A stretch of DNA of 64,000 bases, taken from positions 2,584-66,583 of the forward strand of contig CAVKLJ010000004.1 in NCBI GenBank assembly GCA_963657245.1. The letters run 5' to 3'. Position 1 is the first letter of the stretch; the number at the start of each line of letters is the position of its first letter. A program made the translations under genes and the position numbers. Below the pieces are notes generated by a model, which saw only the letters and a list, made by a program, of their open reading frames with translations, did no database searches and had not been told where the DNA came from. Shown here piece by piece: positions 3,820 through 33,317 of the stretch. The DNA is from Lachnospiraceae bacterium (lineage in GTDB: Bacteria > Bacillota_I > Bacilli_A > RFN20 > CAG-826).

Positions 3820-3820
3820 T

Positions 3821-11158: not shown

Positions 11159-11193
11159 GATTTTTTGAATCACTTTTTCGAGAAGAGAAAAAC

Positions 11194-11224
11194 TTGCACT
11201 CAGTCGGGGGGGGGGAATTATTAT
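11194..11224 (+). promoter_or_regulatory. candidate promoter of the collagen-like lipoprotein gene, with a G10 tract in the spacer
   Basis: TTGCAC (11194-11199), 19 nt spacer containing G10, TATTAT (11219-11224). The ATG is at 11255. Confidence 0.4.
11206..11215 (+). repeat. homopolymeric G10 tract
   Basis: Ten consecutive G residues in an AT-rich intergenic region. Confidence 0.95.
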
Positions 11225-11254
11225 ATCCTCACAAGGAGTGAATCCAAAAAAACT

Positions 11255-17653: not shown

Positions 17654-20029
17654 TTAAGCGGCTAATTTAGCTTCTTGACCTTTTTTATAACGATCGTAGA
17701 AGTAGATGCCAACTCCGCCAAGGATAAGTAATCCTACTGGAACTGTCCACCCCCAAGCGGCATATTGGAAGGTAACATAGGTTAAGCAACCTAAGATATA
17801 AGATCCAAGGAGCCAGAAGAGGAGAGTTCCGATGTAATCGCGTCTTGAACTAAGTTCGCCTTTTGCAGTAGCCACAGAAGCAAAGCAAGGGATTGTTGTC
17901 ATGTTAAAGACAGCGAATGCGACTAAGGAAGCGGTGGTGATGTTTCCGCCTGTTGCGTTAGAAGCGGCAACAATTGCATTTAATCCTTCAAGGGCATCAT
18001 CTGGATCGATGTTTGCACCAATGCCAGGAAGAGCTGCTAATTGGGCTAAGACAGAAACAACGTTTTCTTTAGCGATGATACCTTGAACTGAGGCAACCGC
18101 ATATGTCCAAGCGTATTTACCGCCTTGAGCATTACCAAATCCCATTGGGGTAAATAATGGAGAGATGATCATGCCGATGTGGGCAAGGATAGAATCTGCA
18201 TCACTTAAGATGACGTCGACGTCACCTGCAGCAAACGCATCTTCTGTGAACATAGGAATGAATTGCCAAGATGGGGTAAAGCTAGACAAGAACCAAATAA
18301 TGACAGTTGAAGCAAAGATGATTGTGAATGCTTTCTTAAGATAATGTTTACCTCTGTCCCAAACGTGTAAGGCAAGGGCTTGTGGTTGAGGAAGGTGATA
18401 GGCAGGTAACTCCATGATGAATGGCGGAACCTTTTCACGCTGAGTGGTCTTATTCATTGCGATAACTGCAATGATGGCGACGACAACACCAAATAAGTAG
18501 ATTAAGAATGTGAACAAACCTTGATCAAGGCCTGAGGCGGCTGCAACTGCAGCGGCAATACAAACCAAGAATTCGGTTTTAGCTCCGCAAGTGAAGAATG
18601 GAATAACACGGATGGTTTTTGTTCTTTCTTTGTCGGAAGCAAGCGTACGGGTGTTGATCATGGCAGGAACGCCACAACCAAATCCCATGATCATTGGTAA
18701 GAAGGCTCTTCCTGAAACGCCGAAACGGCGGAAGATACGGTCTAATACGAAGGCAATACGTGCCATATATCCGGAATCTTCTAAGAAGGAGAAGAAGGCG
18801 AATAAGAGAAGAATTTGTGGAACGAATCCTAATACTGAAGCAATACCGTTAAGAACACCATCATAAACAAAGCCGGTTAGCCATTCAGGCGCATTGCAAT
18901 TAATGAGCAATTGTTTGATGCCAGTGCAAATAATGCCTTGGATACCGGAGTCATTGCCAGCACCAAAGAAATTTTGAAGGATTGCGCCAAGAGAATTAAA
19001 TCCATCTGCTGTAAAGAACAATTCTTTAAATGGATAGAAATCTTCTCCGTCGATTGTCCAATGGATGAATCCTGGATAGCCTTCGCCATAATCAAGACCC
19101 ATTGCGTGCATATAGAATAAATCGCCAGCAAATGTTAAGTGAAATATTAAGAAGAGGACAACGACCATGATTGGGAGAGCTGTCCATCTATTTGTTAAGA
19201 CTCTATCGATCTTATCGGAGAGAGATAATTTCTTCTTTTCTTGAGTGACTCCACCTTTACGATAGATTGCAAGTTCAGAGGTGATGTACTTATAACGCTT
19301 ATCCGCGCTATCAGCTTCAAAGCCTTCATGATCTTCAACCAATTCAGAAACCTCTTTATAAGCAAGAGGGTTCTTTTCTGCTTCGAGTTCATCGCCTTCT
19401 AAGGCTTTGATGGCATGGAAACGTGGGTTCAAAACTTCTTTATCTTCGTAGCTCTTTATTGCTTTTTCAATAAGTGCTGCATCTTCGCCTTTTGCCCAAA
19501 GCGAGGCACCTTCACGAGGGGTTTTTGAAGTTTTGACGGCTAAATCCATAAGCTCGTCAAGGTTTACTTTTCTTAAAGCAGAGATCTCGATTACTGGGAC
19601 TCCGAGTTTCTTAGAAAGAGCATTGGCATCAATTGATTGCTTATTGTTCTTAAGAGCGTCCATCATGTTTAAGGCAACGACGACTGGGACGTTCATTTCT
19701 AAGATTTGGGTGGTCATATAGAGGTTACGTTCTAAGTTTGTGGCATCCAAAACGTTAATGACCAAATCTGGTTTTTCTTCAAGGATATAGTTTCTTGAAA
19801 TAACTTCTTCTGGTGTATATGGAGAAAGGGAATAAATACCAGGAAGGTCAACGATTTCGACACCTTCCGTATCGCCTTTCTTTTTATAAACACCAGATCT
19901 CTTTTCAACCGTAACGCCAGGCCAGTTACCAACGTATGCTGTGCTGCCAGTTAAGGAATTAAAGAGGGTTGTTTTGCCGCAGTTAGGGTTACCTGCTAAG
20001 CAAAATCTTAATTTCTTTTCTTCGCTCAT
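17654..20029 (-). CDS. feoB: ferrous iron transporter FeoB
   Basis: G-domain GNPNCGKTTLFN, DLPG and NMMD motifs, plus a polytopic C-terminal domain. Confidence 0.95.
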   Translation of the reverse strand: MSEEKKLRFCLAGNPNCGKTTLFNSLTGSTAYVGNWPGVTVEKRSGVYKKKGDTEGVEIVDLPGIYSLSPYTPEEVISRNYILEEKPDLVINVLDATNLERNLYMTTQILEMNVPVVVALNMMDALKNNKQSIDANALSKKLGVPVIEISALRKVNLDELMDLAVKTSKTPREGASLWAKGEDAALIEKAIKSYEDKEVLNPRFHAIKALEGDELEAEKNPLAYKEVSELVEDHEGFEADSADKRYKYITSELAIYRKGGVTQEKKKLSLSDKIDRVLTNRWTALPIMVVVLFLIFHLTFAGDLFYMHAMGLDYGEGYPGFIHWTIDGEDFYPFKELFFTADGFNSLGAILQNFFGAGNDSGIQGIICTGIKQLLINCNAPEWLTGFVYDGVLNGIASVLGFVPQILLLFAFFSFLEDSGYMARIAFVLDRIFRRFGVSGRAFLPMIMGFGCGVPAMINTRTLASDKERTKTIRVIPFFTCGAKTEFLVCIAAAVAAASGLDQGLFTFLIYLFGVVVAIIAVIAMNKTTQREKVPPFIMELPAYHLPQPQALALHVWDRGKHYLKKAFTIIFASTVIIWFLSSFTPSWQFIPMFTEDAFAAGDVDVILSDADSILAHIGMIISPLFTPMGFGNAQGGKYAWTYAVASVQGIIAKENVVSVLAQLAALPGIGANIDPDDALEGLNAIVAASNATGGNITTASLVAFAVFNMTTIPCFASVATAKGELSSRRDYIGTLLFWLLGSYILGCLTYVTFQYAAWGWTVPVGLLILGGVGIYFYDRYKKGQEAKLAA

Positions 20030-20049
20030 AATGAACCTTTCTTTTTGAT

Positions 20050-20340
20050 TTACTTAGTCGTATTGATGTCGGTGACTTTAATAACGACATGTGAGGCTTC
20101 TTCTTTTCTTAATGTTAATTCGTAGCCTCTAAGCGTAATTTCAAGAGGGTCACCAAGTGGGGCTTTCTTTCTTAAGAAAACTTCTGCACCAGGAGTTAAT
20201 CCCATATCGAAAATACGTCTTTTGATCTTTCCCTCGCCTTGAATACGGAGGATGTCGCCAGACATTCCAACGCCAAGAACGTTAAGGGTGATCTCATCTC
20301 CTAACTTGATTTCGCTAGGTGTAATTTCCTTTTCTTCCAT
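20050..20340 (-). CDS. feoA: FeoA domain protein
   Basis: SH3-like FeoA pattern RRIFDMGLTPGAEV...GDPLEI. Confidence 0.8.
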   Translation of the reverse strand: MEEKEITPSEIKLGDEITLNVLGVGMSGDILRIQGEGKIKRRIFDMGLTPGAEVFLRKKAPLGDPLEITLRGYELTLRKEEASHVVIKVTDINTTK

Positions 20341-20357
20341 AATTTTTTCCTATATCT

Positions 20358-20576
20358 TTATATGACTTCAACCTGAATGGCTCTCGCCATGTTTCTATCG
20401 AGGGCAAGACGTGAGTCGCCAAGTCGCAAAATAACTCCGTTTGCTTCGCTTGACAAAAGGGTTATTTTCATCTCAGGAACGATGCCAAGTTCTCTTAGGT
20501 GTTTAATTGCTTTATCGTTTCCCACAAGTCTTACAACCGTAAGTTCTGTATCTGTTGGTGCAATCATTAAAGGCAT
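20358..20576 (-). CDS. feoA: FeoA domain protein
   Basis: LRELGIVPEMKITLL...GDSRLALDRNMA. Confidence 0.8.
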   Translation of the reverse strand: MPLMIAPTDTELTVVRLVGNDKAIKHLRELGIVPEMKITLLSSEANGVILRLGDSRLALDRNMARAIQVEVI

Positions 20577-20699
20577 AGTTAGTTACTCCTTACGTGGGTA
20601 TTATAGCCTTGCAAAATCATAAATCAACAAAAAGTTAGTAGATGATAACTAGAAATATTGTTAAAATATATTTACTTGATTCACAGAGAGGTTAAAACT

Positions 20700-21080
20700 A
20701 TGGCAATTGATGCATTAGAATCAGCAGAAGATTATCTTGAAAGAATATTGATGCTACAAAAACAAGGGATGACAGAAATCCACGCAGTGGATCTAGCTTC
20801 TTCCTTTGGTTATTCAAAGGCTTCGATTTCTATCGCTCTTCATAAATTAGAGGAGAAGGGCTATGTCGCACTTGGTTTAAAGAGCCAGCTTTATCTAACA
20901 CCAGCAGGCTATGAGATTGCTAAGAGGGTTTATGAGAAACACCAAGTCATCTCTTCCTTCCTTATGTCTATAGGAGTAGATAAAGAAATTGCTCTTAAAG
21001 ACGCATGCAGAATGGAACACTTCATTTCTGAAGAAACTTTTTCAGCTTTGAAAAAAGAATTAGAAAGCAAACAAAAATAA
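20700..21080 (+). CDS. DtxR/MntR-family metal-dependent transcriptional repressor (two-domain, no SH3-like domain)
   Basis: ESAEDYLERI...SKASISIALHKLEEKGYV...ACRMEHFIS. Divergent from the feo operon. ATG at 20700 preceded by a GAGAGG RBS. Confidence 0.85.
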   Translation: MAIDALESAEDYLERILMLQKQGMTEIHAVDLASSFGYSKASISIALHKLEEKGYVALGLKSQLYLTPAGYEIAKRVYEKHQVISSFLMSIGVDKEIALKDACRMEHFISEETFSALKKELESKQK

Positions 21081-21099
21081 ACAAATCATTGAATTTTTT

Positions 21100-21122
21100 G
21101 ACCACATTATGTGGTCTTTTTT
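21100..21122 (+). terminator. rho-independent terminator
   Basis: GACCACA-tta-TGTGGTC stem followed by TTTTTT. Confidence 0.75.
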
Positions 21123-21223
21123 AGTTTTTGCGATAAATCCTCTTTCAATTTTTAGAAATGAGCATACACTTTATAAGTAATAAGCCGAATCCTTATTACA
21201 GTTAAATGAAAGAAGGATTTTTT

Positions 21224-22504
21224 ATGTCAACTTTGGCAATTCAAGGAATGCAATGGGGCGATGAAGGTAAGGGTAAGATTACCGATTATTTCGCTTCTAA
21301 AGCGGATGTCGTAGTCCGTTCACAAGGAGGAAACAATGCTGGCCATTCAATCGTTTTCAACGGAAAACGTTATGCGTTAAGGCTACTCCCTTCTGGCGTA
21401 TTCCATAAAAATATCGTTAACGTTATTGCTGATGGAGTAACGGTTAATCCAACCGCTTTAATAGATGAACTTGATTCTTTGAAAGAACAAGGAATTGAAG
21501 GTATCCAATTATTGATTTCTAATCGTGCGACTCTTTTGATGCCATATCACGTTGATCTTGATAAAGCTCGTGAAAACGCTCTTGGAAAAGCCAAAATTGG
21601 CACAACTGGAAGAGGAATTGGCCCTTCTTATGAAGATAAAGCCTCACGTTTAGGCTTAAGAATGGGCGATATTGTCGATGAAGAATATCTCAAAGAAAGA
21701 TTAGATGAAGTCCTTCCAATCAAGAATCTTGAACTTAAGGCATTTGGCGCCAAAGAATACACTGTTGAAGAGCTTTTGAAATATCTTGCCCCAGTAAGAG
21801 AACGTCTTTCTTCTTTAATAACCGATACATCTTTATTCTTAGAGGAACAAATCGCTAACGGAAAGAAAGTTCTTTTCGAAGGCGCACAAGGGGCGATGCT
21901 TTGCTTAACGCATGGCACCTATCCATATGTAACTTCATCTTCACCTCTAGCAACCGCCATTCCACTTAATGCTGGTTTGCCATTAGATTCCATTGATACG
22001 ATGTGTGGCATCACAAAAGCCTATTGCACACGTGTTGGCGCAGGCCCATTCCCAAGCGAAATCGATAATGAGGAAGCAAATAGTATTCGTGAAAAAGGCC
22101 ATGAATATGGCACAGTCACAAAACGTCCAAGACGTATTGGCTGGCTTGATGTCATGGAACTTAAATATATTAAGAGAGTAACTGGCGTCAAATATAGCGC
22201 GTTGATGTTACTCGATGTTCTTTCTGCCGTTGATGAAATCAAACTTTGCGTTGGCTATAAACTAAATGGCAAAGAAATAAACACAATGCCATCAACCGTT
22301 AAAGAAGTTGGCAAGATTGAGCCTATTTTTATCAGTATGCCATCTTGGAAAGAAGACATTTCCAAATGCAGAAGCTTCGAAGAATTACCTCTTGCCGCTC
22401 AAAATTATATCAAGAAAGTTGAAGAATTATCAGGCATCTACTTTGCCATCGTTTCTGTCGGACCAGACAGAGAAGAAACCATCATCCGTAAGGAGCTTTT
22501 CTAA
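21224..22504 (+). CDS. purA: adenylosuccinate synthase
   Basis: QWGDEGKGK, GGNNAGH and TGRGIGP motifs. Confidence 0.95.
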   Translation: MSTLAIQGMQWGDEGKGKITDYFASKADVVVRSQGGNNAGHSIVFNGKRYALRLLPSGVFHKNIVNVIADGVTVNPTALIDELDSLKEQGIEGIQLLISNRATLLMPYHVDLDKARENALGKAKIGTTGRGIGPSYEDKASRLGLRMGDIVDEEYLKERLDEVLPIKNLELKAFGAKEYTVEELLKYLAPVRERLSSLITDTSLFLEEQIANGKKVLFEGAQGAMLCLTHGTYPYVTSSSPLATAIPLNAGLPLDSIDTMCGITKAYCTRVGAGPFPSEIDNEEANSIREKGHEYGTVTKRPRRIGWLDVMELKYIKRVTGVKYSALMLLDVLSAVDEIKLCVGYKLNGKEINTMPSTVKEVGKIEPIFISMPSWKEDISKCRSFEELPLAAQNYIKKVEELSGIYFAIVSVGPDREETIIRKELF

Positions 22505-23799
22505 TGATTGAGCGTTACGCCCCAAAGAAAATCGAAGAACTCTTTTCCGATGAAGCAAGATTCAATTCGTATCTTGAGATAGAAATTGCAGTCGTTGAAG
22601 GCTGGAATAAATTAGGCCTTGTTCCTGATTTAGATTTAGAAAAGATCCATCAAAACGCCAAAGTTGATGTTGCCCGTATCAAAGAAATTGAGACAATAAC
22701 CAAACACGACGTCGTTGCCTTTACTAGACAAGTAAGCGAAACTCTCGGAGAAGAAAGAAAATGGATTCATTATGGCTTAACTTCAACTGATGTTGTTGAT
22801 TCGGCCTTGGGCCTTCAATATAAAAAAGCCAATGAAATCATTGAAAAAGACTTTCTTTCTTTGATGGAATCGTTAAAGGAGAAGGCTTTGGAATACGAAT
22901 TTCAGCCATGTATGGCTAGAACACACGGCATGCATGCGGAAATATATTCCTTTGGCTTGAAATTTGCTTCTTTCTACGATGAAGCAAAACGTTCTTTGTC
23001 TTTCTTTAATGCGGCAAGGAAAGAAGTTGAAGCGGTAAAACTTTCTGGTGCGGTTGGAACATATGCCAATATCGATCCAAGCATCGAAAAATATGTTGCG
23101 GAAAAACTCGGCCTAACCAAACCAAGCGTTTCGACTCAAGTCCTTTCAAGAGATAGACATGAGGAATACGCTTCAGCAATGGTCGTGGCCTCTTCTTTGA
23201 TCGAAAAGATTGCCGTTGAAATTAGAAATCTCTCCCGCACCGAGATTGGCGAGCTTGAAGAAGGTTTCTCCAAAGGGCAAAAAGGCTCATCGGCAATGCC
23301 TCAAAAACGTAATCCGATATCCTCAGAAAACCTTACTGGCGCAGCTAGAATGATGAGAGGTTATTTGATTCCTATATTGGAAGATAACGCCCTCTATCAC
23401 GAAAGAGATATCTCCCACTCAATTGTTGAAAGAGTAAGCCTCATTGATATGATCGAATTATTCGATTACATGCTCATCAGAATGAAGAAAGTGGTGGATA
23501 ATCTCTCTATTTTCCCAACTAAGATGGAAGAAAACATCCAAAAGAGCCATGGAGCAATTTACTCGCAAAGAGCGATGAACGCTTTGATTGAAAAAGGCCT
23601 AACACGTGAAGAGGCTTATGACCTTGTTCAACCTCTTGCAATGAACTCTGTTACTAAAGGTATGGATTTCATCAACCAACTTATTATAAATAAGGATGTT
23701 CTAAAACACTTAAGCGAAAAAGATATCACCTCACTAACTAGCAACGAATATTACTTCAAAAACATTGATTATATTTATAAAGAAATAGGCTTGAAATAA
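22504..23799 (+). CDS. purB: adenylosuccinate lyase
   Basis: Fumarate-lyase signature GSSAMPQKRNP. TAATG overlap with purA. Confidence 0.95.
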   Translation: MIERYAPKKIEELFSDEARFNSYLEIEIAVVEGWNKLGLVPDLDLEKIHQNAKVDVARIKEIETITKHDVVAFTRQVSETLGEERKWIHYGLTSTDVVDSALGLQYKKANEIIEKDFLSLMESLKEKALEYEFQPCMARTHGMHAEIYSFGLKFASFYDEAKRSLSFFNAARKEVEAVKLSGAVGTYANIDPSIEKYVAEKLGLTKPSVSTQVLSRDRHEEYASAMVVASSLIEKIAVEIRNLSRTEIGELEEGFSKGQKGSSAMPQKRNPISSENLTGAARMMRGYLIPILEDNALYHERDISHSIVERVSLIDMIELFDYMLIRMKKVVDNLSIFPTKMEENIQKSHGAIYSQRAMNALIEKGLTREEAYDLVQPLAMNSVTKGMDFINQLIINKDVLKHLSEKDITSLTSNEYYFKNIDYIYKEIGLK

Positions 23800-23814
23800 G
23801 CCTTTTCTTTTTAT
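23787..23814 (+). terminator. terminator overlapping the purB stop codon
   Basis: AGGCTT-gaaat-AAGCCT stem followed by TTTTCTTTTT. Confidence 0.6.
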
Positions 23815-23936
23815 TTAAATAAAAGTTAGGCAAATAAAACTTAGATTTTTCCGAAGAAATTAGGCATTTTAGTTTGCTTAACATTGCCAATTTTCATAGT
23901 AAAATAATTTTTGAATTGAGAAAGGAATTTTTTTCT

Positions 23937-24185
23937 ATGGAAACGAGTAAAGAAACTGCTCAAGTATGTATTCGTTGCGCTCGTTGTATTCACGCTTGCC
24001 CATTAGGCTTAAATCCAGTCAATATCATGACGACGATGAAAAGCATGCCTGTCGACAAAGCAAAGATTAAATTACTTAATCCTTCCGTTTGTGATGAATG
24101 CAAGAAATGTAACGATGTTTGCCCGAGCAATATTGATTTAGCAACAATTGTGAAGAGAGCTAAGATTGTTGCCAAACTCCCTTAA
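23937..24185 (+). CDS. 82-aa 2x[4Fe-4S] ferredoxin-like protein corresponding only to the C-terminal domain of RnfC
   Basis: CIRCARCIHACP ... CDECKKCNDVCPSNIDL. The long inter-motif spacer and the CPSNI tail are RnfC-like. RBS AAAGGA. First gene of the rnf-type operon. Confidence 0.7.
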   Translation: METSKETAQVCIRCARCIHACPLGLNPVNIMTTMKSMPVDKAKIKLLNPSVCDECKKCNDVCPSNIDLATIVKRAKIVAKLP

Positions 24186-24197
24186 TGAGGTATTAAC

Positions 24198-25361
24198 ATG
24201 AGTGTAGAAGTAACTAAAACTAATTCTGCAGAAGTAGTTGCCGCACCAGCTCCTAAAAAAGCCCATAAGCAATCTGTCGAATGGATGCTATATGATGTGC
24301 TTATTGCTCTTGCTCCAACTGTTATTTATGCAGTTCTAATGTATGGTGTATATGCCATACGTAACATTTTGATCCCTGCCGCGACAATGTTTATCGCAGA
24401 AATGGTCTTTGTTGTTATCAAAAATCGCAAAGCCCTATTTAGCAAGGATGAAAAAACCAAGAAATCATTCTTTGATGTATTAAGCATCACTGATATTGTT
24501 TCTCCATTAATTTCAGGAATTATCTTTGGCTTGATGGTCTCAAATAGAGATACAGATCCTGCTGGACTTATCTATTTCATTTTGATTGTTTCATCTTTAT
24601 TCGGGATTATCTTTGGAAAACTCTGTTTCGGTGGTTTAGGAAAGAATATCTTCAACCCAGCTGCTGTTTCCTTTGTTTTCATGCTTGTTTGCTTTAATTC
24701 CAAATTCACTGGCACATATCACCTTAATGCTTGGGGAATTTCTTTCTTAGGAAACGCCTCATTCGAAGCTGGTGCAACACCATTAGCCAATGGATTCAAT
24801 GCAAGCCTATATAGCTTAGATAACATCAAAGCCTTATTCCTTGGCCAAGTTAATGGTGGAATTGGCGAATCTTGCAAGATTCCTCTTCTTATTGGGCTTG
24901 TCTATTTATTGGTTAGAAGAGATATTGATTGGAAGACAATCGTTTCCTTCCTTTTGATGTTCTTAGCAATGTCCCTTGTTGCCGGATTATTCTTCTTAGG
25001 CAAAAAGGACGTGAATCCTCTTTACTACATGCTTTATCAATTGCTTAGCGGTGGCGTCTTCTTCGGAATGACGTACATGATAAGCGAACCTGTAACAATG
25101 CCTCTTACTTCTCCTAGCAGAGTTATGTACGGCATGGTTATTGCAATTATTGTCGTATTCATCAGAACCTTTGCCTCTGCTCCTGAAGGAATGGCCTATG
25201 CAATCCTTATGGGCAACGCACTTGGTTGCTTTATCGACTACTACAAATGGAGCCAAACAAAATTCAGTTGGAAGAGCTGGGTGGCAATTGCTGCAATTGC
25301 AGTCGTCGGTCTTGCCATCTTTGCCTGGTGCATGAATGGCTTCAATTACGGAGGAAATTAA
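24198..25361 (+). CDS. rnfD: Rnf complex subunit D
   Basis: NQR2/RnfD-type polytopic protein. AGATPLA (flavinylation-site motif), NIFNPAA, and SGGVFFGMTYMISEPVT. Confidence 0.9.
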   Translation: MSVEVTKTNSAEVVAAPAPKKAHKQSVEWMLYDVLIALAPTVIYAVLMYGVYAIRNILIPAATMFIAEMVFVVIKNRKALFSKDEKTKKSFFDVLSITDIVSPLISGIIFGLMVSNRDTDPAGLIYFILIVSSLFGIIFGKLCFGGLGKNIFNPAAVSFVFMLVCFNSKFTGTYHLNAWGISFLGNASFEAGATPLANGFNASLYSLDNIKALFLGQVNGGIGESCKIPLLIGLVYLLVRRDIDWKTIVSFLLMFLAMSLVAGLFFLGKKDVNPLYYMLYQLLSGGVFFGMTYMISEPVTMPLTSPSRVMYGMVIAIIVVFIRTFASAPEGMAYAILMGNALGCFIDYYKWSQTKFSWKSWVAIAAIAVVGLAIFAWCMNGFNYGGN

Positions 25362-25362
25362 T

Positions 25363-26829
25363 ATGAGTGAAGAAATTAAAAACACTACTGTTCCTTCAGA
25401 AGAAAAGAATGATTGGAAGAAATGGCTCAAAGTTGGTGGAATCCTTTGCGCAATTGCTGGAGCAAGCGCCCTCGTTTTGACCTCTCTTAATTTATTAACT
25501 GCCCCAATCATCGAAGAAAACAATGCCAAAAAACAATCTGGTGGTTATCGTGAGATTTTCTCCAATTGGGCGGCAAACTCTGATCCGGTCGCAATTGAAG
25601 GCAATGACAATCTAGCCGAATATTGCATCGCATATTCTGATACTGCCAAAACAAATCAAATTGGCTACATCTATACTTCCAAGACCTTGGCTGTCAAATC
25701 CTTTGGTAACGTCAAAGCCATGGTTGGTATTTCTGGTGAAACTGATTCACCAGTCTTAGGAAAGATTTATCTTGTTGAAAATTCCCTTTCTTACAAGACA
25801 ACTCTTGAAAGCGGATATATCCTTCCATATAACTCCAACCCAGGCGATACAACACTCAATAACGTTAAGTGCGGCGCAACCTTTGGTGCTGAAGCGATTA
25901 AAGGAATAATCAATGCTGCAAGAGATCACTATTCTTCAATCGGAGATAGTTTCAAAGAAGACCTTGCTGATGATATCAAACAAATCTGGGGTGAAAATTC
26001 CGGATATACGGTTGATAATTCCGAAACCAACAACGTTTCTGGAACAACTTATGTCAAGAAATCATATTCATTCTATGAAGATGATACGATGACAGGCGAA
26101 ATCGGTCGTCTTTATTCTGCAAAATACAAGGGAGATGCAGGGGATATTTACATTACTGTGTCTTTCAATGAGAAGAATGAGTTAGGCAAACTTGTCGTTA
26201 CAAAAGACACATTAGCTGATAACACGTCTCTTAATAACTATGTTTCCGCTTATAACTCCAACCCATCAGAAGAAACGCTTAATGCCACAAATGGTGCAGA
26301 TTCTGAAGCTGTTAAAGCAATGGTAAGCGAAGCTAAGACGACTTTAACAACTGCTGGCGGATTGAAATCTTCATCTTCATATTTTAAAGATGTTATTGCT
26401 TCTAGCGCCTATTCTGAGGTGAGCGAAGCTACTGCTCTTACAAAAGATGCGGCTGAAAAAGTCAATGTTCTTCGTTATTGGACGTTCTCTAAGACCGAGA
26501 CAACCGAATCGGAAGAGGAGAAAGTTACAGAAGTTGCAAAAGTCTATAAGATCCAAGCAACCATGGAAGCAAAGAGCTATACGACAATCGAATCCGATAC
26601 AGTTTACTTATTAACAATCACCGGTTCTAAGGATTCACCTGCTTTAGGTAAGATGACCTTATTAAAGAATGAAGCTGGTGGCGGTCAAGTTTCTGATATT
26701 GAAAGTTACTTCACAAATTTTGATGGCTCGCAAACAAGCGAAGGCGTTAACGGAAGTGGAGCAACCTACACCTTGAAAGCCGTTTGGGAAGGCATAGAGA
26801 AGGCAAAAGCTCTCTATAGCGCAGAATAA
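25363..26829 (+). CDS. rnfG: Rnf complex subunit G, expanded: TM anchor plus three tandem FMN_bind-like modules
   Basis: N-terminal TM helix and LTAPII motif. Each of the three modules contains an LGK(I/L/M) motif; the modules end in VKCGATFGAEAI, TNGADSEAV and GSGATYTLKAV. 488 aa. Confidence 0.8.
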   Translation: MSEEIKNTTVPSEEKNDWKKWLKVGGILCAIAGASALVLTSLNLLTAPIIEENNAKKQSGGYREIFSNWAANSDPVAIEGNDNLAEYCIAYSDTAKTNQIGYIYTSKTLAVKSFGNVKAMVGISGETDSPVLGKIYLVENSLSYKTTLESGYILPYNSNPGDTTLNNVKCGATFGAEAIKGIINAARDHYSSIGDSFKEDLADDIKQIWGENSGYTVDNSETNNVSGTTYVKKSYSFYEDDTMTGEIGRLYSAKYKGDAGDIYITVSFNEKNELGKLVVTKDTLADNTSLNNYVSAYNSNPSEETLNATNGADSEAVKAMVSEAKTTLTTAGGLKSSSSYFKDVIASSAYSEVSEATALTKDAAEKVNVLRYWTFSKTETTESEEEKVTEVAKVYKIQATMEAKSYTTIESDTVYLLTITGSKDSPALGKMTLLKNEAGGGQVSDIESYFTNFDGSQTSEGVNGSGATYTLKAVWEGIEKAKALYSAE

Positions 26830-26843
26830 GGAGGAAAAAGAAT

Positions 26844-27602
26844 ATGGAAAAAACAAATATTTCACGTTCACAACATAAAGAGAACTTCCTTAATCCAATT
26901 TGGAAACAAAATCCTCTCTTTGTCTTATTGCTTGGTACTTGCCCAGCTTTAGCCGTTACAACAACGATTGAGAACGCCATTGGTATGGGTATTCTCTTTA
27001 CCTTCGTCTTGGTTGGCTCAAGTGTTTTGGTTTCTCTCCTACGTAAGGTCATTCCTGAAGAAGTTGAGACTCCAGCTTATATCATCATCATCGCTACATT
27101 TGTTACTATCGTTAAAATGTTAGCGGAAGCCTTTGTTCCTGAACTTTATACAGGACTTGGTGTCTTTATTTCCTTACTTGTAGTTAACTGCATCGTTTTA
27201 GGAAGAGCTGAAGCTTTTGCTAAGAAGAATACGGTTTATGACTCTTTCCTTGATGCGTTAGGAAATGGCGTTGGCTATATTATCGCCATCTTAATCATTG
27301 CCGCAGTTCGTGAGATCTTAGGAACTGGTATGATTACAGTTGGCGCAGTCTTCACCTTTATTCCAAAGACATCCCTTCATATTTTGAAATTCGATAATCT
27401 CGATCTTTCAATCCCTCTCTTTGCTAAGCCAGCCGGCGGCTTCATCGTCTATGGCGTTATCGAAGCTATAATTGCCGCTAAAAACATTAGCAAACAACAA
27501 AAAGAAGCTGCAGCAAAGAAAGCGGCTCTCTTAAAGGCCCAAGCCGAAAAAGCAGCTGCCGCTAAGACTTTAGCTGCTAACACTCCTAAGGAGGCAAAAT
27601 AA
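26844..27602 (+). CDS. rnfE: Rnf complex subunit E (with an Ala/Lys-rich C-terminal tail)
   Basis: NPLFVLLLGTCPALAVTT and VVNCIVLGRAEAFA. Extra tail QQKEAAAKKAALLKAQAEKAAAAK. Confidence 0.9.
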   Translation: MEKTNISRSQHKENFLNPIWKQNPLFVLLLGTCPALAVTTTIENAIGMGILFTFVLVGSSVLVSLLRKVIPEEVETPAYIIIIATFVTIVKMLAEAFVPELYTGLGVFISLLVVNCIVLGRAEAFAKKNTVYDSFLDALGNGVGYIIAILIIAAVREILGTGMITVGAVFTFIPKTSLHILKFDNLDLSIPLFAKPAGGFIVYGVIEAIIAAKNISKQQKEAAAKKAALLKAQAEKAAAAKTLAANTPKEAK

Positions 27603-28192
27603 TGACTGCTACAAATTTATTTACAGCATTCTTGCTTGCAATCGTTTCATCTTTATTGATCAACAACGTTGTTCTTTCTAGATTCTACGGAATTTGCTCC
27701 TACCTAGGTGTTTCCACGAAAGTGAAATCGTCCGTTGGTATGGGCATTGCCGTTGTCTTTGTCATCATGCTTGCCTCTTTGGTTTGCTACCCAATTTATA
27801 ATTTCGTTCTTGTTCCAGCAGGCTTAGCCTTCTTGGATACAATCGTTTATATTTTGGTTATCGCTTCCTTGGTTCAACTTGTTGCTCTTGTTATCAAGAA
27901 ATATTCCCCATCTCTTTATAAGAGCTTAGGCATCTACTTGCCTCTTATCACCACAAACTGCGCAGTTCTTGGCGTTGTCCAAGAAAACAACACTCTTTCC
28001 TTTGCCAATTCCATGGCTAACGCCATTGGTACAAGCGTCGGCTTCCTTGTCATGATCGTTCTTTTCTCAACAATCAGAACAAGATTAGATTCAACCGACT
28101 CTCCAAAGGCTTGGAAGGGTTTGCCTCTTGCTTTGATTACTGCCGCCATCATGGCTATGGCCATAATGGGATTAAGTGGCATGGTCGCATAA
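27602..28192 (+). CDS. rnfA: Rnf complex subunit A
   Basis: INNVVLSRFYGIC, LPLITTNCAVLGV. TAATG overlap with rnfE. Confidence 0.9.
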   Translation: MTATNLFTAFLLAIVSSLLINNVVLSRFYGICSYLGVSTKVKSSVGMGIAVVFVIMLASLVCYPIYNFVLVPAGLAFLDTIVYILVIASLVQLVALVIKKYSPSLYKSLGIYLPLITTNCAVLGVVQENNTLSFANSMANAIGTSVGFLVMIVLFSTIRTRLDSTDSPKAWKGLPLALITAAIMAMAIMGLSGMVA

Positions 28193-28193
28193 T

Positions 28194-28424
28194 ATGCAAA
28201 GAATTCATTACATTCTCATCGCGATCGCGATTCTTGTGGCATTGATTGCAATATTCATCATCAGTTTCGTTGCATATCGTCGTACACCCGCTCCAAAAGG
28301 GTGCGAAGATCTCAAACCTGAATCTGATATGTGCTCGCAATGCCAAAAGACATCGTGTGCATTCTACGAAGAATACCATAAAGAAAACGATGAGAAGGAT
28401 GAGCAAAATAAAGGAGATAAATGA
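28194..28424 (+). CDS. 76-aa single-TM protein with a cytoplasmic 4-Cys cluster, embedded in the rnf operon
   Basis: TM helix IHYILIAIAILVALIAIFIISFVAY, then RR, then C-x11-C-x2-C-x4-C and an acidic tail. Starts 1 nt after the rnfA stop. ATGA overlap with the next gene. Confidence 0.5.
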   Translation: MQRIHYILIAIAILVALIAIFIISFVAYRRTPAPKGCEDLKPESDMCSQCQKTSCAFYEEYHKENDEKDEQNKGDK

Positions 28425-28753
28425 ATATGGGTCCATTAACAATACTCTGGGGTGTCTTAGTTCTTGCCGGACTTGGCCTTGTGCTTGGCTTCTTACTTGC
28501 ATTAGCCGCTAAATTCCTCCATGTTGAAGAAGATAAGCGTATCAAAGAAGTGGAAAGCATGTTACCAGGTGCTAACTGCGGTGCTTGCGGATATGCCGGT
28601 TGCCACGATTTAGCCGAAGCCTTAGTTACAGGCGCAGCAAAGAAAGTTACAGCTTGCAAAGTCGGTAAAAAAGAGAAGAATTTTGATCCAATTGTAGCCT
28701 ATATGAAGGCTACTCCAGGACCAGATGGAAAAATTACTGAAGTAAGTGAATAA
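28421..28753 (+). CDS. rnfB: truncated-type RnfB: TM helix plus N-terminal Fe-S cluster domain only, no ferredoxin domains
   Basis: LPGANCGACGYAGCHDLAEAL...ACKVG (CxxCx4Cx16C) after one TM helix. 110 aa. Confidence 0.75.
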   Translation: MNMGPLTILWGVLVLAGLGLVLGFLLALAAKFLHVEEDKRIKEVESMLPGANCGACGYAGCHDLAEALVTGAAKKVTACKVGKKEKNFDPIVAYMKATPGPDGKITEVSE

Positions 28754-29015: not shown

Positions 29016-29039
29016 AAGTGGTAAATATGCCACTTTTTT
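29016..29039 (+). terminator. rho-independent terminator after the tRNAs
   Basis: AGTGG-taaatat-CCACT stem followed by TTTTTT. Confidence 0.6.
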
Positions 29040-29078: not shown

Positions 29079-32000
29079 ATGTGGTGTATGATGCCAACAA
29101 GTAATGAAGCAAACAACAACTTTGATGGTAAAATCGACAAGTTTCTTAAACAAACGTTAGAAAGTTCATCTTTGTGTTTTGGCATTTTTGATACGAATTC
29201 TGGCAAGGCTGAAACTATTCTTTTATCGAAAGGTTTCAAAACGAATTTCAATAAAAACAATCCTTCTAGTAAAGAAACAATCTTTGGGATTTCAGTTGTC
29301 AACGTCCATAAAGATGATGTAGAAGGCTTCAAGGAAAAAGCATCTTCCTTAGTTAACGGGGGAGATGAACTAGATTTATATTTCCGTTTCCATTCATCAT
29401 CTAATAGCCTTTATCATTCAATCCACGCCTTAGGAAGACGTATCAAACTTGAAGGAGATGATTTCCTTTTTGTTTGGTATAACGATTTAGCAAGGATGGA
29501 TGATGATACGTTTGTCTTTGATGAAAGAGCCTATGATAACACCGTTAGCATCATTAAAAAATATTATGATGACGAATTAACTGGGTTGCCAAGGATGGCC
29601 AATTTCGTTCATCACGTCCAAGAACTGTTATCGACCCCATATATTGATGAGAAGAATTATGTTCTTCTTGCCTTTGACTTAACGGGTATGAAAGCCTTCA
29701 ACATGAAATATGGCTTCGAAAACGGGGACCGTTTGATCATCTCTATTGCCGACATTTTGAAAAAACATTTCGAAACTCAATCAATTTCACGTTTTGGCGA
29801 GGATCATTTCTACGTTTTAACCGAGAATGATGAGATTGAAAAAACAATCAAAGAGATTTTTGAAGACGTTAAAAAAGCAAATGATGGCAATACCTTACCT
29901 ATTCGTGTTGGCATCTATAAAGACAAAATAACGGATATTTCGGTTGCTTGCGATAAGGCGAAAACGGCCGCGGATGTTGGAAGACATTCCTATATTTCCC
30001 ATTTCACGTATTTTGATGAAAATCTATCAGAAGAAATCGAAAAACGTGATTTTATTTTAAATAATTTAGAAAATGCCATAGAAAAAGGCCATATTCAGCC
30101 ATATTATCAACCAATCGTTAGAACATTGAATAATAAGGTTGCAGATGAAGAGGCCCTTGCCCGTTGGAAAGATCCTGAGAAAGGATTATTAAATCCTGCA
30201 GATTTCATCTCAATTCTTGAAGATGCAGGAATCATCTATAGATTAGATTTATGTATCCTAGATTGCGTCCTTGCCGACTTAAAAAAGAAAAAAGACAAAG
30301 GCCAATATCTAACTCCAGTTTCAATTAATATTTCTCGTTATGATTTTGAATCGTGCAATATCGTTGAACTAGTTTCAAAGAAAGTCACGGAAAGTGGCTT
30401 TTCTCCCGACTTAATCATTATCGAAATAACTGAATCTGCCGCTTTCTATAACAAAGCATTGCTTATCGAACAAGTGAATAGATTCCATGAATGTGGCTTT
30501 AAAGTCTGGGTTGATGATTTTGGCAGTGGCTATTCTTCCTTAAACAGCCTTCAAGAATTCTCTTTCGATGGAATGAAAATAGATATGGGTTTCTTATCTT
30601 CTTTTAAAGAGAATAAGAAAACTCCAAGTATCATCAAAGAAACAATCAAACTTGCGGAAAAAATCGGTATAGATACAATTTGCGAAGGCGTTGAAACAAA
30701 AGAAGAATTGGATTTCTTGCGTGAAGCTGGATGCGATAAAGTCCAAGGTTACTATTTCTCTAAGCCAAATCCAATCGATTATATAATTTCTGGACAGACT
30801 CCTTTAAAGAGAGAAAATCCTGAAGAGCGTGAATACTATCGTGAAATAGCTCTTTCTTCACTTAGTGAGCCTGAATCAAATGGCGATAAAGGCACCATGG
30901 CAGAGCGCGCCTTATCTGGACCTAGTGTTGGAATCATCGAAGTAAAGGATAACACATTCCGCCTCTTAAGAACGACAAAGGCTTTTAAGAGCGCGTGTGA
31001 AATCGAAGGGTTTATTTCTCCTAATGAGCAATTTGATGGTGGCTATCCATTCATTCGAACACCTGATTCTTTCTTCTCTGAAGCAATATATAGGGCTTGT
31101 GATACAGGAAATTGGGAAGAAACATCCTTCTATTCCGAAAGACGCATAACCACGTTCTTCTTTAGATTAGTTTCTACAAATCCTGTTACTAAGGCTAAGT
31201 CTGTCATGTGCATCATGTCTTATGCCAATAAGGGCAGTGATAAAAAAGTCCAAAGAGAAGCTGAACTAATCAATTTAGAAACTATCAATGTTGATGATTT
31301 CCCATTACCTGTAATCATCATCGAACTTTGTAACGACGCCGGAAAAGAGCGTCTTAAATGTTTGAACCTTAATAAAGCGTTCTCTGAATTAGCATCGGTA
31401 ACTCCTGAAGAAGCGAAAAACTCTAACTATCTTGAAAGTGTCTTTGATAAAAAGAATGAGTGGAAGAAACTAATAAAGCAAGTTCTTTCCGTTAGAAGAC
31501 CTTTAAAGGGAGAGACTTTCCATGAGCCAACGCGCCTATGGATGAATTTCATAATTTCTCCTTGTTTAAGTGAGAATTGCGTGTGTGTGACCATCCTTCA
31601 AGATAGCAGCTCTTTCTCCTTATTTGAAAAAAGAGCAATTAACTGCGATGATGAAGCCTATAGAATTGCTAGTATCTTAAAACAAGATGGCAATCATTCA
31701 AAAAAGATCGATGATGCCCTAAATGAATTTGGTCGCTCATCTAATGCGGATGACGCTTTGGTGATTGAAATAAATGGAAACGTCATTGAACATTGCCACG
31801 AGTGGAACAAACCAGCTTTCAATCCTTTATCTAGAGAAATTGATGAAGCTGAATTTGTTAATTTACTAGCCTTTTTAAGAAAACGTTTTAAAGAAGAAAC
31901 CTATGTTTCCGTTAAAGCCATTGAAGAATTGAAAATAAATGGTGGAACATTCTATGATTGGTGTAGAGCACATGGGGTAAAACGTTTCTTGATTTTCCCA

Positions 32001-33317
32001 TTATTCTCCCAAGGAAAATTAATCGGTCTCTTCATTGTTAACAATTACGAAATTAATAATGCCGAATTTACAAGAAAGTTGATGGAAAAGCTTTCTGGAG
32101 TTTTCTCTTCGCAGATAAGTTTATCTTACAAAGATAAAGAGAAAAACGAAAAAACACATGGATTTCCTAAGTATTTTTCCGATTCTAGCGACTTGAAGAC
32201 CAAAATTAAACGTTTCTTTGGAATTGGCAAAAGAAGTGCGTCGGAAAATATCTATAACGATCGTAGCAACATCGAAATAGGGCGACTTACATCTGCCTTC
32301 CTTGGTTTGTTTGAACTTGTGTTTGCAATTGTCTTTACCATTAATTTCTATTTAAACAAAGATAAACAACCAGATAACATCTACTATCAAAGCACATGGG
32401 TTTGGAGCCACTTGGCTTTATACGCTTTTGCATTTGTCGTAAACGCCCTCTTCTTCCTTTATTGTGAGTTCTATTATCATGATAAATTCACTAAAGTTAA
32501 GAAATTATCTTTAAAAACCCATGTTGTGATCGATGCATATGTATTGTGCATAATCACTTTCGGAATGCTTATCTCTATTATGGACGTGCAAAATGGCGGA
32601 CAACCAATAACGTTCGTTACAATGCTACTATATACAATGCTGATTTTCCGCTTATATCCGATCAAGAGCATCATCTATCTATTCGTCATGAATGTTTTAT
32701 TTGTCATTCTCCTTTGCGAAGTTCCGATGGTCAACCTTCCTATGGATAAAATAAACATGAGCTTGGATATAGGGGCATTTGCTAACATCATTTGTGTATT
32801 TATTCTTGAATGCGTTGCTTCATCTCTTCTTTATAAAGCCAGAATGAGAGCGGCCGCACACTGTATTGTCGATACTCTTTCAGGCACTAAATGCCGCTTT
32901 GCCTTACAAGAAGATTTCAAGCACTTAGAAGGAAAACGAGTTGTTGTCATGATGCTTGATGTCGATGATTTTAAGTTACTTAATGACATCTACGGTCACC
33001 AAGCGGGGGATGAAGTCATTAACGAAGTTGGCCAAGCTTTAATTAAGACCTTTGGTGTTGAATCGGTTTACCGTTATGGCGGAGATGAATTCCTTGTTAT
33101 CAAAAAAGGCGATTTATTCTCTTTTGAAAAACATTTATTTAACCTACAACGTAATATAAGTTCAGTAACCTCACTTGATATGAACGTTACCTTCTCGGCT
33201 GGCTATAAAGAGCATCTTGTTGGAGAAAATGCTTCTCTAGATGAAGTGATTAGAGAGTCTGACTTGCTCTTATACGAAGCTAAGAAACGTGGCAAGAATC
33301 AAATCGTCAAAGGATAA
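29079..33317 (+). CDS. multidomain c-di-GMP signalling protein: PAS-like, degenerate GGDEF, EAL, PAS/GAF-like region, ~6 TM helices, canonical GGDEF
   Basis: First cyclase motif reads RFGEDHF. EAL motifs EEALARW, EITES, DDFGSGYSS, EGVETKEE and QGYYFSKP. C-terminal YRYGGDEFLVI. The start codon is uncertain. Confidence 0.8.
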   Translation: MWCMMPTSNEANNNFDGKIDKFLKQTLESSSLCFGIFDTNSGKAETILLSKGFKTNFNKNNPSSKETIFGISVVNVHKDDVEGFKEKASSLVNGGDELDLYFRFHSSSNSLYHSIHALGRRIKLEGDDFLFVWYNDLARMDDDTFVFDERAYDNTVSIIKKYYDDELTGLPRMANFVHHVQELLSTPYIDEKNYVLLAFDLTGMKAFNMKYGFENGDRLIISIADILKKHFETQSISRFGEDHFYVLTENDEIEKTIKEIFEDVKKANDGNTLPIRVGIYKDKITDISVACDKAKTAADVGRHSYISHFTYFDENLSEEIEKRDFILNNLENAIEKGHIQPYYQPIVRTLNNKVADEEALARWKDPEKGLLNPADFISILEDAGIIYRLDLCILDCVLADLKKKKDKGQYLTPVSINISRYDFESCNIVELVSKKVTESGFSPDLIIIEITESAAFYNKALLIEQVNRFHECGFKVWVDDFGSGYSSLNSLQEFSFDGMKIDMGFLSSFKENKKTPSIIKETIKLAEKIGIDTICEGVETKEELDFLREAGCDKVQGYYFSKPNPIDYIISGQTPLKRENPEEREYYREIALSSLSEPESNGDKGTMAERALSGPSVGIIEVKDNTFRLLRTTKAFKSACEIEGFISPNEQFDGGYPFIRTPDSFFSEAIYRACDTGNWEETSFYSERRITTFFFRLVSTNPVTKAKSVMCIMSYANKGSDKKVQREAELINLETINVDDFPLPVIIIELCNDAGKERLKCLNLNKAFSELASVTPEEAKNSNYLESVFDKKNEWKKLIKQVLSVRRPLKGETFHEPTRLWMNFIISPCLSENCVCVTILQDSSSFSLFEKRAINCDDEAYRIASILKQDGNHSKKIDDALNEFGRSSNADDALVIEINGNVIEHCHEWNKPAFNPLSREIDEAEFVNLLAFLRKRFKEETYVSVKAIEELKINGGTFYDWCRAHGVKRFLIFPLFSQGKLIGLFIVNNYEINNAEFTRKLMEKLSGVFSSQISLSYKDKEKNEKTHGFPKYFSDSSDLKTKIKRFFGIGKRSASENIYNDRSNIEIGRLTSAFLGLFELVFAIVFTINFYLNKDKQPDNIYYQSTWVWSHLALYAFAFVVNALFFLYCEFYYHDKFTKVKKLSLKTHVVIDAYVLCIITFGMLISIMDVQNGGQPITFVTMLLYTMLIFRLYPIKSIIYLFVMNVLFVILLCEVPMVNLPMDKINMSLDIGAFANIICVFILECVASSLLYKARMRAAAHCIVDTLSGTKCRFALQEDFKHLEGKRVVVMMLDVDDFKLLNDIYGHQAGDEVINEVGQALIKTFGVESVYRYGGDEFLVIKKGDLFSFEKHLFNLQRNISSVTSLDMNVTFSAGYKEHLVGENASLDEVIRESDLLLYEAKKRGKNQIVKG

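Follow-up and report, generated by a model that had tools for sequence, protein, structure and literature searches.

The question raised by this locus is why RnfG, a subunit of Rnf-type complexes that typically has about 200 amino acids (aa) and one flavin mononucleotide (FMN)-binding domain, should extend to 488 aa in an operon whose RnfC and RnfB are reduced to stubs, and where its electrons would then go. The gene in question, rnfG, lies in a stretch of 64,000 nucleotides (nt) of contig CAVKLJ010000004.1 (assembly GCA_963657245.1), hereafter the window, whose host belongs to the class Bacilli and is an uncultured bacterium of gut or rumen. The answer that we favour, with a probability of about 0.6, is that the FMN domain of this RnfG was triplicated, such that modules 1 and 3 would carry FMN, module 2 would be a flavin-less spacer between them, and the whole would form an extracytosolic branch for electrons.

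Three modules of one fold behind a single anchor

The gene and its parts are as follows.

25363..26829, + strand: rnfG, 488 aa, a single membrane anchor and three tandem RnfG/FMN_bind-like modules (open reading frame, homologs, AlphaFold2, Foldseek, profile)
25423..25512, + strand: membrane anchor, residues ~21-50 (WLKVGGILCAIAG...LTAPII) (AlphaFold2 helix, conservation, alignment to solved RnfG)
25540..25950, + strand: module 1, residues 60-196, canonical RnfG domain with N-V-K-C-G-A-T173 (T173 codon 25879-25881)
25951..26367, + strand: module 2, residues 197-335, RnfG fold without acceptor, N-G-A-D313 (codon 26299-26301)
26368..26826, + strand: module 3, residues 336-488, distal FMN_bind-like module with S-G-A-T468 (codon 26764-26766)

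The open reading frame (ORF) at 25363-26829 is intact over 488 codons. A second possible ATG is present at 25336, and the stop codon of the preceding rnfD ends at 25361. Since the ATG at 25363 has GGAGG 8 nt upstream and the homologs all begin with MSEE, it was accepted over the one at 25336, and the initial annotation of this DNA, which had been made from the sequence without database searches, had the correct start.

That annotation had also proposed three tandem FMN_bind-like modules behind one anchor, each marked by an LGK landmark, and these landmarks are indeed found at residues 132, 274 and 428. In single-sequence BLASTP comparisons, module 1 aligned with module 2 (29% identity over 125 aa, E 3e-13) as well as with module 3 (26% identity over 108 aa, E 1.5e-7). 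Furthermore, we split an alignment of 26 homologs (459-500 aa, 24-79% identity) into three module blocks and compared these with hhalign, whereupon all pairs aligned end to end with their motif positions in register, the probabilities being 99.4% for modules 1 and 2 (E 9e-22), 99.7% for modules 1 and 3 (E 1.3e-25), and 97.9% for modules 2 and 3 (E 6e-13). The internal repeat is far above chance.

Structure prediction, which had been suggested as a check, yielded three repeats of one fold with RnfG chains as the top matches. AlphaFold2, run on the family alignment, gave a model with a mean predicted local distance difference test (pLDDT) of 84.8, in which a long N-terminal helix is followed three times by a unit of beta-sheet, helix, short helix, and long helix, the last long helix beginning at T173, A312/D313, and T468, respectively. 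The anchor was modelled as one long helix (residues 17-65); it is the best-conserved stretch across the 26 homologs and aligns with the membrane helix of solved RnfG. In Foldseek, the full model had the RnfG chains 7zc6_G, 8rb9_G, and 8ahx_G as its top PDB matches, with a probability of 1.0 and a template modelling (TM) score of 0.68, normalised to the target, for 7zc6_G (C. tetanomorphum RnfG), and the crystal structure of the FMN domain CbFMN4-D1 superposed on it with a TM score of 0.70, again normalised to the target. Module 2, when modelled alone (pLDDT 94.7), likewise matched 7zc6_G (probability 0.99) and 8rb9_G (0.96) first among PDB entries.

Sequence profiles point in the same direction for the family as a whole, as its profile matched the RnfG sequences 7zc6_G (E 3.6e-7) and 9eri_G (E 2.2e-5), with a second, weak stretch in which the module 3 motif was aligned to RnfG TGATITSK. 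The best match of the module 3 profile among PDB sequences was CbFMN4-D1 (8p2b, E 0.014), placing TGATY on the SGATV flavinylation site. For module 2, chance-level matches alone were obtained against PDB sequences, for instance farnesyl pyrophosphate synthase and lectins, and since its profile found nothing meaningful there, the assignment of this module to RnfG comes from hhalign and from the fold. Pfam FMN_bind (PF04205) matched module 3 alone (residues 406-481, 14 bits, E 0.084, gathering threshold 22 bits), so that the Pfam domain count suggested in the initial annotation did not come to three. FMN_bind was the sole Pfam family to recur among the 26 members, with matches in 10 of them, a best E of 0.0013, and none above threshold. 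The best NCBIfam RnfG model, RnfG_DVU2794, reached 14.6 bits against a cutoff of 205, over residues 26-77 only; the family is highly divergent.

The FMN_bind/RnfG fold was found for module 1 in the full model and for module 2 in its own model, and it is supported for module 3 by its secondary-structure pattern, the hhalign match to module 1, and the match to 8p2b. An architecture with a single FMN_bind domain and two segments of unrelated fold is contradicted by the homology of the modules and by the RnfG fold of module 2, and three tandem modules behind one anchor are what hhalign (97.9-99.7%), the AlphaFold2 model, and Foldseek together describe. The protein as a whole is built as an RnfG, with an N-terminal membrane helix followed by an extracytosolic RnfG/NqrC-fold domain (AlphaFold2, Foldseek, family profile).

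Predicted acceptor sites on the first and third modules

The three modules differ at the site of covalent flavin attachment, where they read C170-G-A-T173, N310-G-A-D313, and S465-G-A-T468, in accordance with the graded motifs of the initial annotation. In module 1, the acceptor T173 is retained, and C170, G171, A172, and T173 are invariant in all 26 homologs. In module 2, Thr is replaced by Asp, and no acceptor is conserved at this position among the 26 homologs, from which it appears that the acceptor was lost in essentially all of the family and that the module would be unable to accept FMN. In module 3, the conservation of A467, T468, and Y469 is 90% or higher, against a mean column identity of 38% in the remainder of the module, and the motif with T468 lines up with the flavinylation sites of solved domains. 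Two of the FMN-binding modules have their acceptor in an [S/T]GA[S/T]-like motif, namely module 1 (CGAT) and module 3 (SGAT).

The flavin transferase ApbE recognises the motif D-x-x-[S/T]-G-A-[S/T], and in a tested substrate a Thr-to-Ala exchange abolished flavinylation, Asp-to-Ala had a minor effect, and Gly-to-Ala about halved it (PMC12052999). Because of this tolerance, modules 1 and 3 are plausible ApbE substrates and module 2 is not. Covalent FMN is predicted for modules 1 and 3, T173 of the former being invariant, and module 3 is most likely a second ApbE substrate, as judged from its motif. The ratio of nonsynonymous to synonymous substitution rates (dN/dS; Nei-Gojobori, pairs unsaturated at synonymous sites) was 0.04-0.06 in module 1 and 0.04-0.07 in module 2, with 0.06-0.21 in module 3. 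Wider ranges of 0.04-0.13 and 0.04-0.20 were also recorded for modules 1 and 2, and every module stayed within 0.04-0.21; by this measure, the apparently flavin-less module 2 is kept by purifying selection like modules 1 and 3. Most likely, it serves as a spacer or adaptor that positions module 3.

One could instead suppose that module 1 alone carries FMN, with modules 2 and 3 as redox-inert structural copies (a stalk, a flavin shield on the wall-less cell surface, or a docking surface) and with ordinary Rnf core chemistry. The purifying selection on a module 2 without acceptor implies that a non-flavin role of the fold does exist here; the module 3 motif departs from the ApbE motif at Asp and, in several homologs, at Gly; and longer related proteins combine intact and degenerate motifs. 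However, the conservation of A-T(-Y) in module 3 stands out against the remainder of that module, its motif is in register with known flavinylated threonines, and Asp and Gly substitutions lower but do not abolish flavinylation in tested substrates. We therefore regard a purely structural module 3 as unlikely.

An rnf operon with stub RnfC and RnfB

The gene is part of an operon of rnf genes only, arranged as mini-rnfC, rnfD, rnfG, rnfE, rnfA, a small ORF, and mini-rnfB. Besides rnfG, it comprises the following features.

23787-23803: terminator-like hairpin after purB, before the promoter-like site (consensus scan alone)
23878..23905, + strand: promoter-like site TTAACA-16-TAAAAT, 5' of mini-rnfC (consensus scan alone)
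23937..24185, + strand: mini-RnfC, 82 aa, C-terminal 2x[4Fe-4S] domain alone (Pfam Fer4 families, NCBIfam rnfC)
24198..25361, + strand: rnfD, 387 aa, flavinylation site EAGATPL kept (Pfam NQR2_RnfD_RnfE, E 8e-62)
26844..27602, + strand: rnfE, 252 aa (Pfam Rnf-Nqr, E 5e-61; NCBIfam RsxE/rnfE above cutoff)
27602..28192, + strand: rnfA, 196 aa (Pfam Rnf-Nqr, E 1e-53; NCBIfam rnfA, 227 bits)
28176..28424, + strand: conserved small ORF, 82 aa, one membrane helix and C-x10-C-x2-C-x4-C (no Pfam match)
28421..28753, + strand: mini-RnfB, 110 aa, membrane helix and one iron-sulfur (Fe-S) domain (Pfam FeS, PF04060, E 4e-12)
29016..29035, + strand: terminator-like hairpin after rnfB (consensus scan alone)

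Promoter-like sites are no more numerous in this region than in shuffles. The gene order is identical in 13 related loci, and the place of rnfG between rnfD and rnfE is that of the RnfG subunit. The membrane core of a canonical Rnf, formed by RnfD, RnfE, and RnfA, is present with strong Pfam and NCBIfam matches, and the translations retain the cofactor ligands, that is, GATPL of RnfD and the Cys of RnfA/RnfE, mini-RnfB, and mini-RnfC.

The two stubs are a different matter. Mini-RnfC matched the Fer4 families alone in Pfam, and its NCBIfam rnfC match covers positions 355-429 of 435; both CxxCxxCxxxCP motifs are kept, and the RnfC_N, Complex1_51K (NADH/FMN), and SLBB domains, and with them the NADH/FMN module of canonical Rnf, are missing (NADH and NAD+ being the reduced and oxidised forms of nicotinamide adenine dinucleotide, NAD(H)). 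Full-length RnfC queries matched by residues ~360-431 alone (tblastn), in the window and in 12 related loci. The 82-aa mini-RnfC ORF is also found in L002-L013 with all eight Cys conserved, and in 12 of the 12 three-module loci with upstream DNA present, RnfC consists of its last ~70-85 residues alone; in deeper relatives, RnfC has 431-436 aa. Mini-RnfB, in turn, is matched by the NCBIfam rnfB models over their first ~85 positions alone and lacks the ferredoxin-like [4Fe-4S] domains of canonical RnfB. A short RnfB of this kind (membrane helix and PF04060) also occurs in single-module relatives with full-length RnfC. Counterparts of the small ORF between rnfA and rnfB, 70-106 aa in length, are encoded at the same site in every related rnf operon (tblastn, gene calls), and the ORF may represent an extra Rnf subunit.

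These stubs bear on the possibility that the complex is still a ferredoxin:NAD+ oxidoreductase, whose RnfC NADH/FMN module would be supplied in trans and whose extra RnfG modules would provide a minor side path or electron buffering. In its favour, three-module RnfGs occur together with a complete RnfC and an adjacent ApbE in deeper branches, which implies that the triplication arose in a normal Rnf, and mini-RnfC retains the two clusters that would normally pass electrons to the NADH module. On the other hand, neither the 64-kb window nor the DNA within 8 kb of the operon at 12 related loci yielded a homolog of the RnfC N-terminal part. When 185,579 species genomes were searched for this part, no stub-carrying assembly contributed to the best 80 of the 320 matches, an absence that is suggestive, not conclusive. 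Moreover, the stub has persisted in lineages in which RnfG identity has fallen to 44%. We regard a retained ferredoxin:NAD+ oxidoreductase of this kind as improbable.

From one module to several

Among close relatives, scanned with one genome per species, 13 loci encode a three-module RnfG (44-77% identity) and three encode a 193-aa single-module RnfG. The three-module loci come from metagenome-assembled genomes labelled Mollicutes, Bacillales UBA743, and Erysipelotrichaceae, as well as from several mislabelled bins. The 'cleanbin' assemblies L001, L002, L004, L008, L009, and L010 are titled Prevotella, Alistipes, Escherichia coli, Hallerella, Sodaliphilus, and Bacteroides uniformis; these six organism titles are evidently wrong for contigs carrying a low-GC (guanine plus cytosine) Bacilli-type operon. 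The single-module loci have an RnfC of 431 aa, and genes for ApbE, NusG_II, and Hpre_diP_synt_I directly 3' of rnfB.

The first 16 loci suggested a strict coupling between triplication and RnfC truncation. This was ruled out by P0021, P0024, and P0025, in which a three-module RnfG (31-38% identity) is accompanied by a full-length RnfC (RnfC_N, Complex1_51K, SLBB, Fer4) and an adjacent ApbE, and by three further cases that came to light when 80 related loci encoding a full-length RnfC were surveyed in a tblastn-anchored census. In this census, 61 RnfGs were shorter than 230 aa, three had three modules, and five measured 234-270 aa. The latter were considered as double-module candidates and rejected, as they contain a single motif each and probably represent single-module proteins whose starts were mis-called. 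With 61 of 70 RnfG genes beside full-length RnfC below 230 aa in these related Bacilli genomes, the statement of the initial annotation that a typical RnfG has about 200 aa and one domain holds true here. An independent two-module RnfG of 353 aa with two TGAT motifs is encoded beside a full-length RnfC in L173 (5375-6436, +); its relationship to the three-module family is remote. In L136 (5410-6411, +), a single-module RnfG apparently reads through into RnfE, which may reflect a sequencing frameshift or a real fusion.

A wider profile search covering 1.84 billion cluster representatives returned 845 relatives at E <=0.001; of these, 208 had E <=1e-10 and 56 had E <=1e-30. The best 150 include ~25 clusters of three-module size, others of ~320-410 aa, and several proteins of 575-1988 aa with 3-6 matched stretches. 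P0037 has five intact xGAT motifs, and P0085 and P0051 have intact and degenerate motifs mixed. Related proteins thus range from one to at least five or six modules, and domain expansion is, by the look of these sequences, a recurring habit of this RnfG lineage. Because deeper three-module relatives keep a full-length RnfC and an adjacent ApbE, the triplication appears to have preceded the truncation of RnfC; the likely order would start from one module, which was triplicated while Rnf was otherwise normal, and would end, in the clade of the window, with RnfC losing its head and ApbE being relocated.

Although the read-through in L136 indicates that such errors do occur in these bins, misassembly, a fusion caused by a frameshift, or decay of the operon is highly improbable as the source of this architecture and is effectively refuted by its recurrence in 13 independent assemblies and in metagenome contigs together with dN/dS values well below 1 in all modules, to which the conservation of all eight mini-RnfC Cys and the promoter-like site and terminator-like hairpin flanking the operon can be added.

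Where the electrons would go

In the solved Rnf complexes, electrons pass from RnfB to RnfA/E, to the RnfG flavin, to RnfD, to the clusters of RnfC, and on to NAD+ (7ZC6, 8RB9; PMC8238504, PMC11334425). Within this frame, we propose that module 1 is the ancestral working domain, whose FMN on Thr173 would relay electrons between the iron-sulfur centre of RnfA/E and the flavin of RnfD. Module 3 would carry a second FMN on Thr468, at the start of the equivalent helix, and module 2, with Asp313, would act as the spacer or adaptor that places module 3. Jointly, the modules would constitute a side branch linking the membrane core with donors or acceptors outside the cell.

As RnfC is a two-cluster stub and RnfB has one cluster, NAD(H) cannot bind at its usual site, and since this site is gone, the extracytosolic branch is probably the main outlet. 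A cytosolic low-potential carrier, e.g. ferredoxin, would donate electrons that exit via RnfG. A loop between the two cytosolic Fe-S stubs would amount to no net chemistry because the NAD site is missing. Most simply, the complex would gain a reaction if electrons left through the extended RnfG arm; both the direction in which they flow and the partner are inferred here. A further step would be that Rnf was turned into an NAD-independent transmembrane conduit, both cytosolic heads being cut to their membrane-proximal Fe-S clusters (82-aa RnfC, 110-aa RnfB) the membrane core being retained, and the two-flavin arm (FMN module, flavin-less spacer, FMN module) delivering ferredoxin-derived electrons to an extracellular acceptor, for instance Fe(III), free flavins, or oxidants derived from the host. 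This stronger version is possible, and we advance it as a tentative idea only.

Several observations weigh against a two-flavin extracytosolic arm. None of the three modules reaches curated Pfam or NCBIfam thresholds. Module 1 has Cys instead of Ser/Thr at motif position -3, the leading Asp is absent from the motifs of both module 1 and module 3 in the window protein, and the Gly before A467 in module 3 varies among homologs (G, N, T, Q, D). A gene for an extracytosolic partner or acceptor conserved beside the operon was not found in the related loci. The occurrence of three-module RnfGs beside full-length RnfC means that triplication alone does not imply NAD-independence, and a divergent stand-alone NADH-binding module could be encoded elsewhere in the genome, given that the search covered the best 80 of 320 matches. 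Finally, ApbE was not found in the 64-kb window (Pfam on every ORF with 150 aa or more, and tblastn searches using four ApbE proteins).

Two of these points can be qualified. The Cys at -3 in module 1 is a lineage trait, shared by single-module relatives (D-V-S-C-G-A-T). As for the transferase, the GATPL site of RnfD in the window also requires ApbE, and ApbE genes are present on other contigs of three stub-RnfC assemblies (L027 from the assembly of L006, L029 from that of L003, and L030 from that of L001). They were detected with a diverse ApbE alignment, after an alignment of three close sequences had recovered its source lineage alone. In the 12 stub-RnfC three-module loci, ApbE was not encoded within 8 kb of the operon. 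The ApbE of L029 is a lipoprotein; its gene (3908-4942) lies between gap and pgk and is followed by NusG_II-like and Hpre-like genes.

Relation to known flavoproteins

Multi-module RnfGs as a class are already known, and the present family is a divergent addition to them. Meheust et al. (2021, eLife, PMC8238504) reported RNF clusters with multi-flavinylated RnfGs and proposed a second path to extracytosolic acceptors. Those proteins resemble ours in being RnfGs of rnf operons with more than one FMN-binding domain, but here the middle module lacks an acceptor and RnfC is a stub. Their survey applied a Pfam cutoff of E <=0.001, and the best E of this family is 0.0013, so it was probably uncounted there; this lineage was not found in the supplements of PMC8238504 that we searched. 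The solved single-domain RnfG shares the membrane anchor, an extracytosolic domain of the same fold, a Thr acceptor at the start of the C-terminal helix, and the position between rnfD and rnfE. It has ~190 aa and one domain, in contrast to 488 aa and three domains here (14-20% identity), and it has neither the Cys at -3 that replaces Ser/Thr in module 1 nor truncated RnfC and RnfB partners.

Tandem FMN_bind domains are likewise found in SaFMN3 and CbFMN4 (PDB 8P2B), FMN proteins of three and four domains in which ApbE achieves full flavinylation, with threonine as the acceptor (Tong et al. 2023, PMC10339131). Those are secreted or soluble proteins of near-identical repeats with FMN on all, whereas the protein of the window is a membrane-anchored complex subunit with diverged modules of ~140-150 aa, one of them without acceptor. 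Huang et al. (2024, PMC11334425) described the structural variety of multi-flavinylated proteins, including a two-subunit NQR/RNF-like system (NQR being the Na+-translocating NADH:quinone oxidoreductase) thought to work one-way. This system (PMC8238504, PMC11334425) is comparable as a pared-down relative with a proposed transfer from the cytosol to an extracytosolic FMN domain. It consists, however, of an RnfD-like protein, lacking the flavinylation site and fused to an NqrF-type NAD-binding domain, and of one RnfG-like protein, while the window encodes RnfD with GATPL kept, RnfE, RnfA, and RnfG together with RnfC and RnfB stubs, and no NAD-binding domain.

The Listeria protein PplA, to which the initial annotation had pointed, holds as an analogy, being a surface protein with more than one FMN_bind domain and ApbE-type flavinylation (predicted here), as known in general and mentioned in PMC8238504. 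It does not hold as a close relative: PplA is a lipoprotein in an Ndh2/EetAB/DmkA locus, and our protein has no lipobox, is anchored by a long uncleaved membrane helix, and has rnf genes as neighbours.

Our literature searches on truncated or missing RnfC, or on Rnf in RF39/RFN20 lineages, yielded nothing relevant, and no description of an extended RnfG combined with an RnfC stub was found. What sets the present proteins apart is a conserved, apparently flavin-less middle module, a family lying below Pfam thresholds, and, in the clade of the window, the stub RnfC. Multi-flavin proteins have been proposed as the flavin counterpart of multi-heme cytochromes, but partners or functions are known for hardly any of them. 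In the present case, the protein with several domains belongs as an integral subunit to a well-understood, structurally solved machine, and the electron entry point is therefore known in advance. As 0 of 26 members pass the FMN_bind threshold, Pfam-based surveys undercount such proteins. Furthermore, nature offers a series consisting of one-module RnfG with full RnfC and adjacent ApbE, three-module RnfG with the same partners, and three-module RnfG with stub RnfC, which could serve to test whether extra modules open an extracytosolic exit and whether Rnf works without NAD(H). If the latter is the case, abundant, uncultured, reduced-genome gut and rumen bacteria would have an added route for disposing of reducing equivalents, and if Rnf did become a conduit to external acceptors, this would be cytochrome-free extracellular electron transfer made from Rnf parts. 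To specialists in flavin proteins, the domain expansion itself will come as no surprise; an NAD-less Rnf core equipped with a two-flavin arm has not been reported and lends itself to experiment.

Surroundings of the operon

Directly 5' of the operon (17654-23799) lie feoB (-), feoA (-), a gene for a DtxR-like regulator (+), purA, and purB. Among stub-RnfC three-module loci that include the upstream DNA, most keep this order, with the regulator, purA, and purB in 12 and feoB in 8. A link between flavinylation clusters and iron uptake was drawn by the authors of PMC8238504; the association of feo genes with the present operon may simply reflect shared ancestry. Further upstream (3145-6748, +), a CobW/HypB/UreG-type GTPase gene is followed by that of a 975-aa Fe-S flavoprotein (Fer4, Fer4_20, Pyr_redox_2), homologs of which adjoin the rnf operon in L007, L015, and L016; this flavoprotein could be an alternative pyridine-nucleotide-linked partner.

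Immediately 3' of the operon (29079-33317, +), a membrane protein of 1412 aa with EAL and GGDEF domains is encoded, and in a distant relative (L021) EAL proteins are encoded just 5' of the rnf operon. The window also encodes a 738-aa protein with collagen triple-helix repeats (11165-13381, +; Pfam Collagen, E 8.5e-20).

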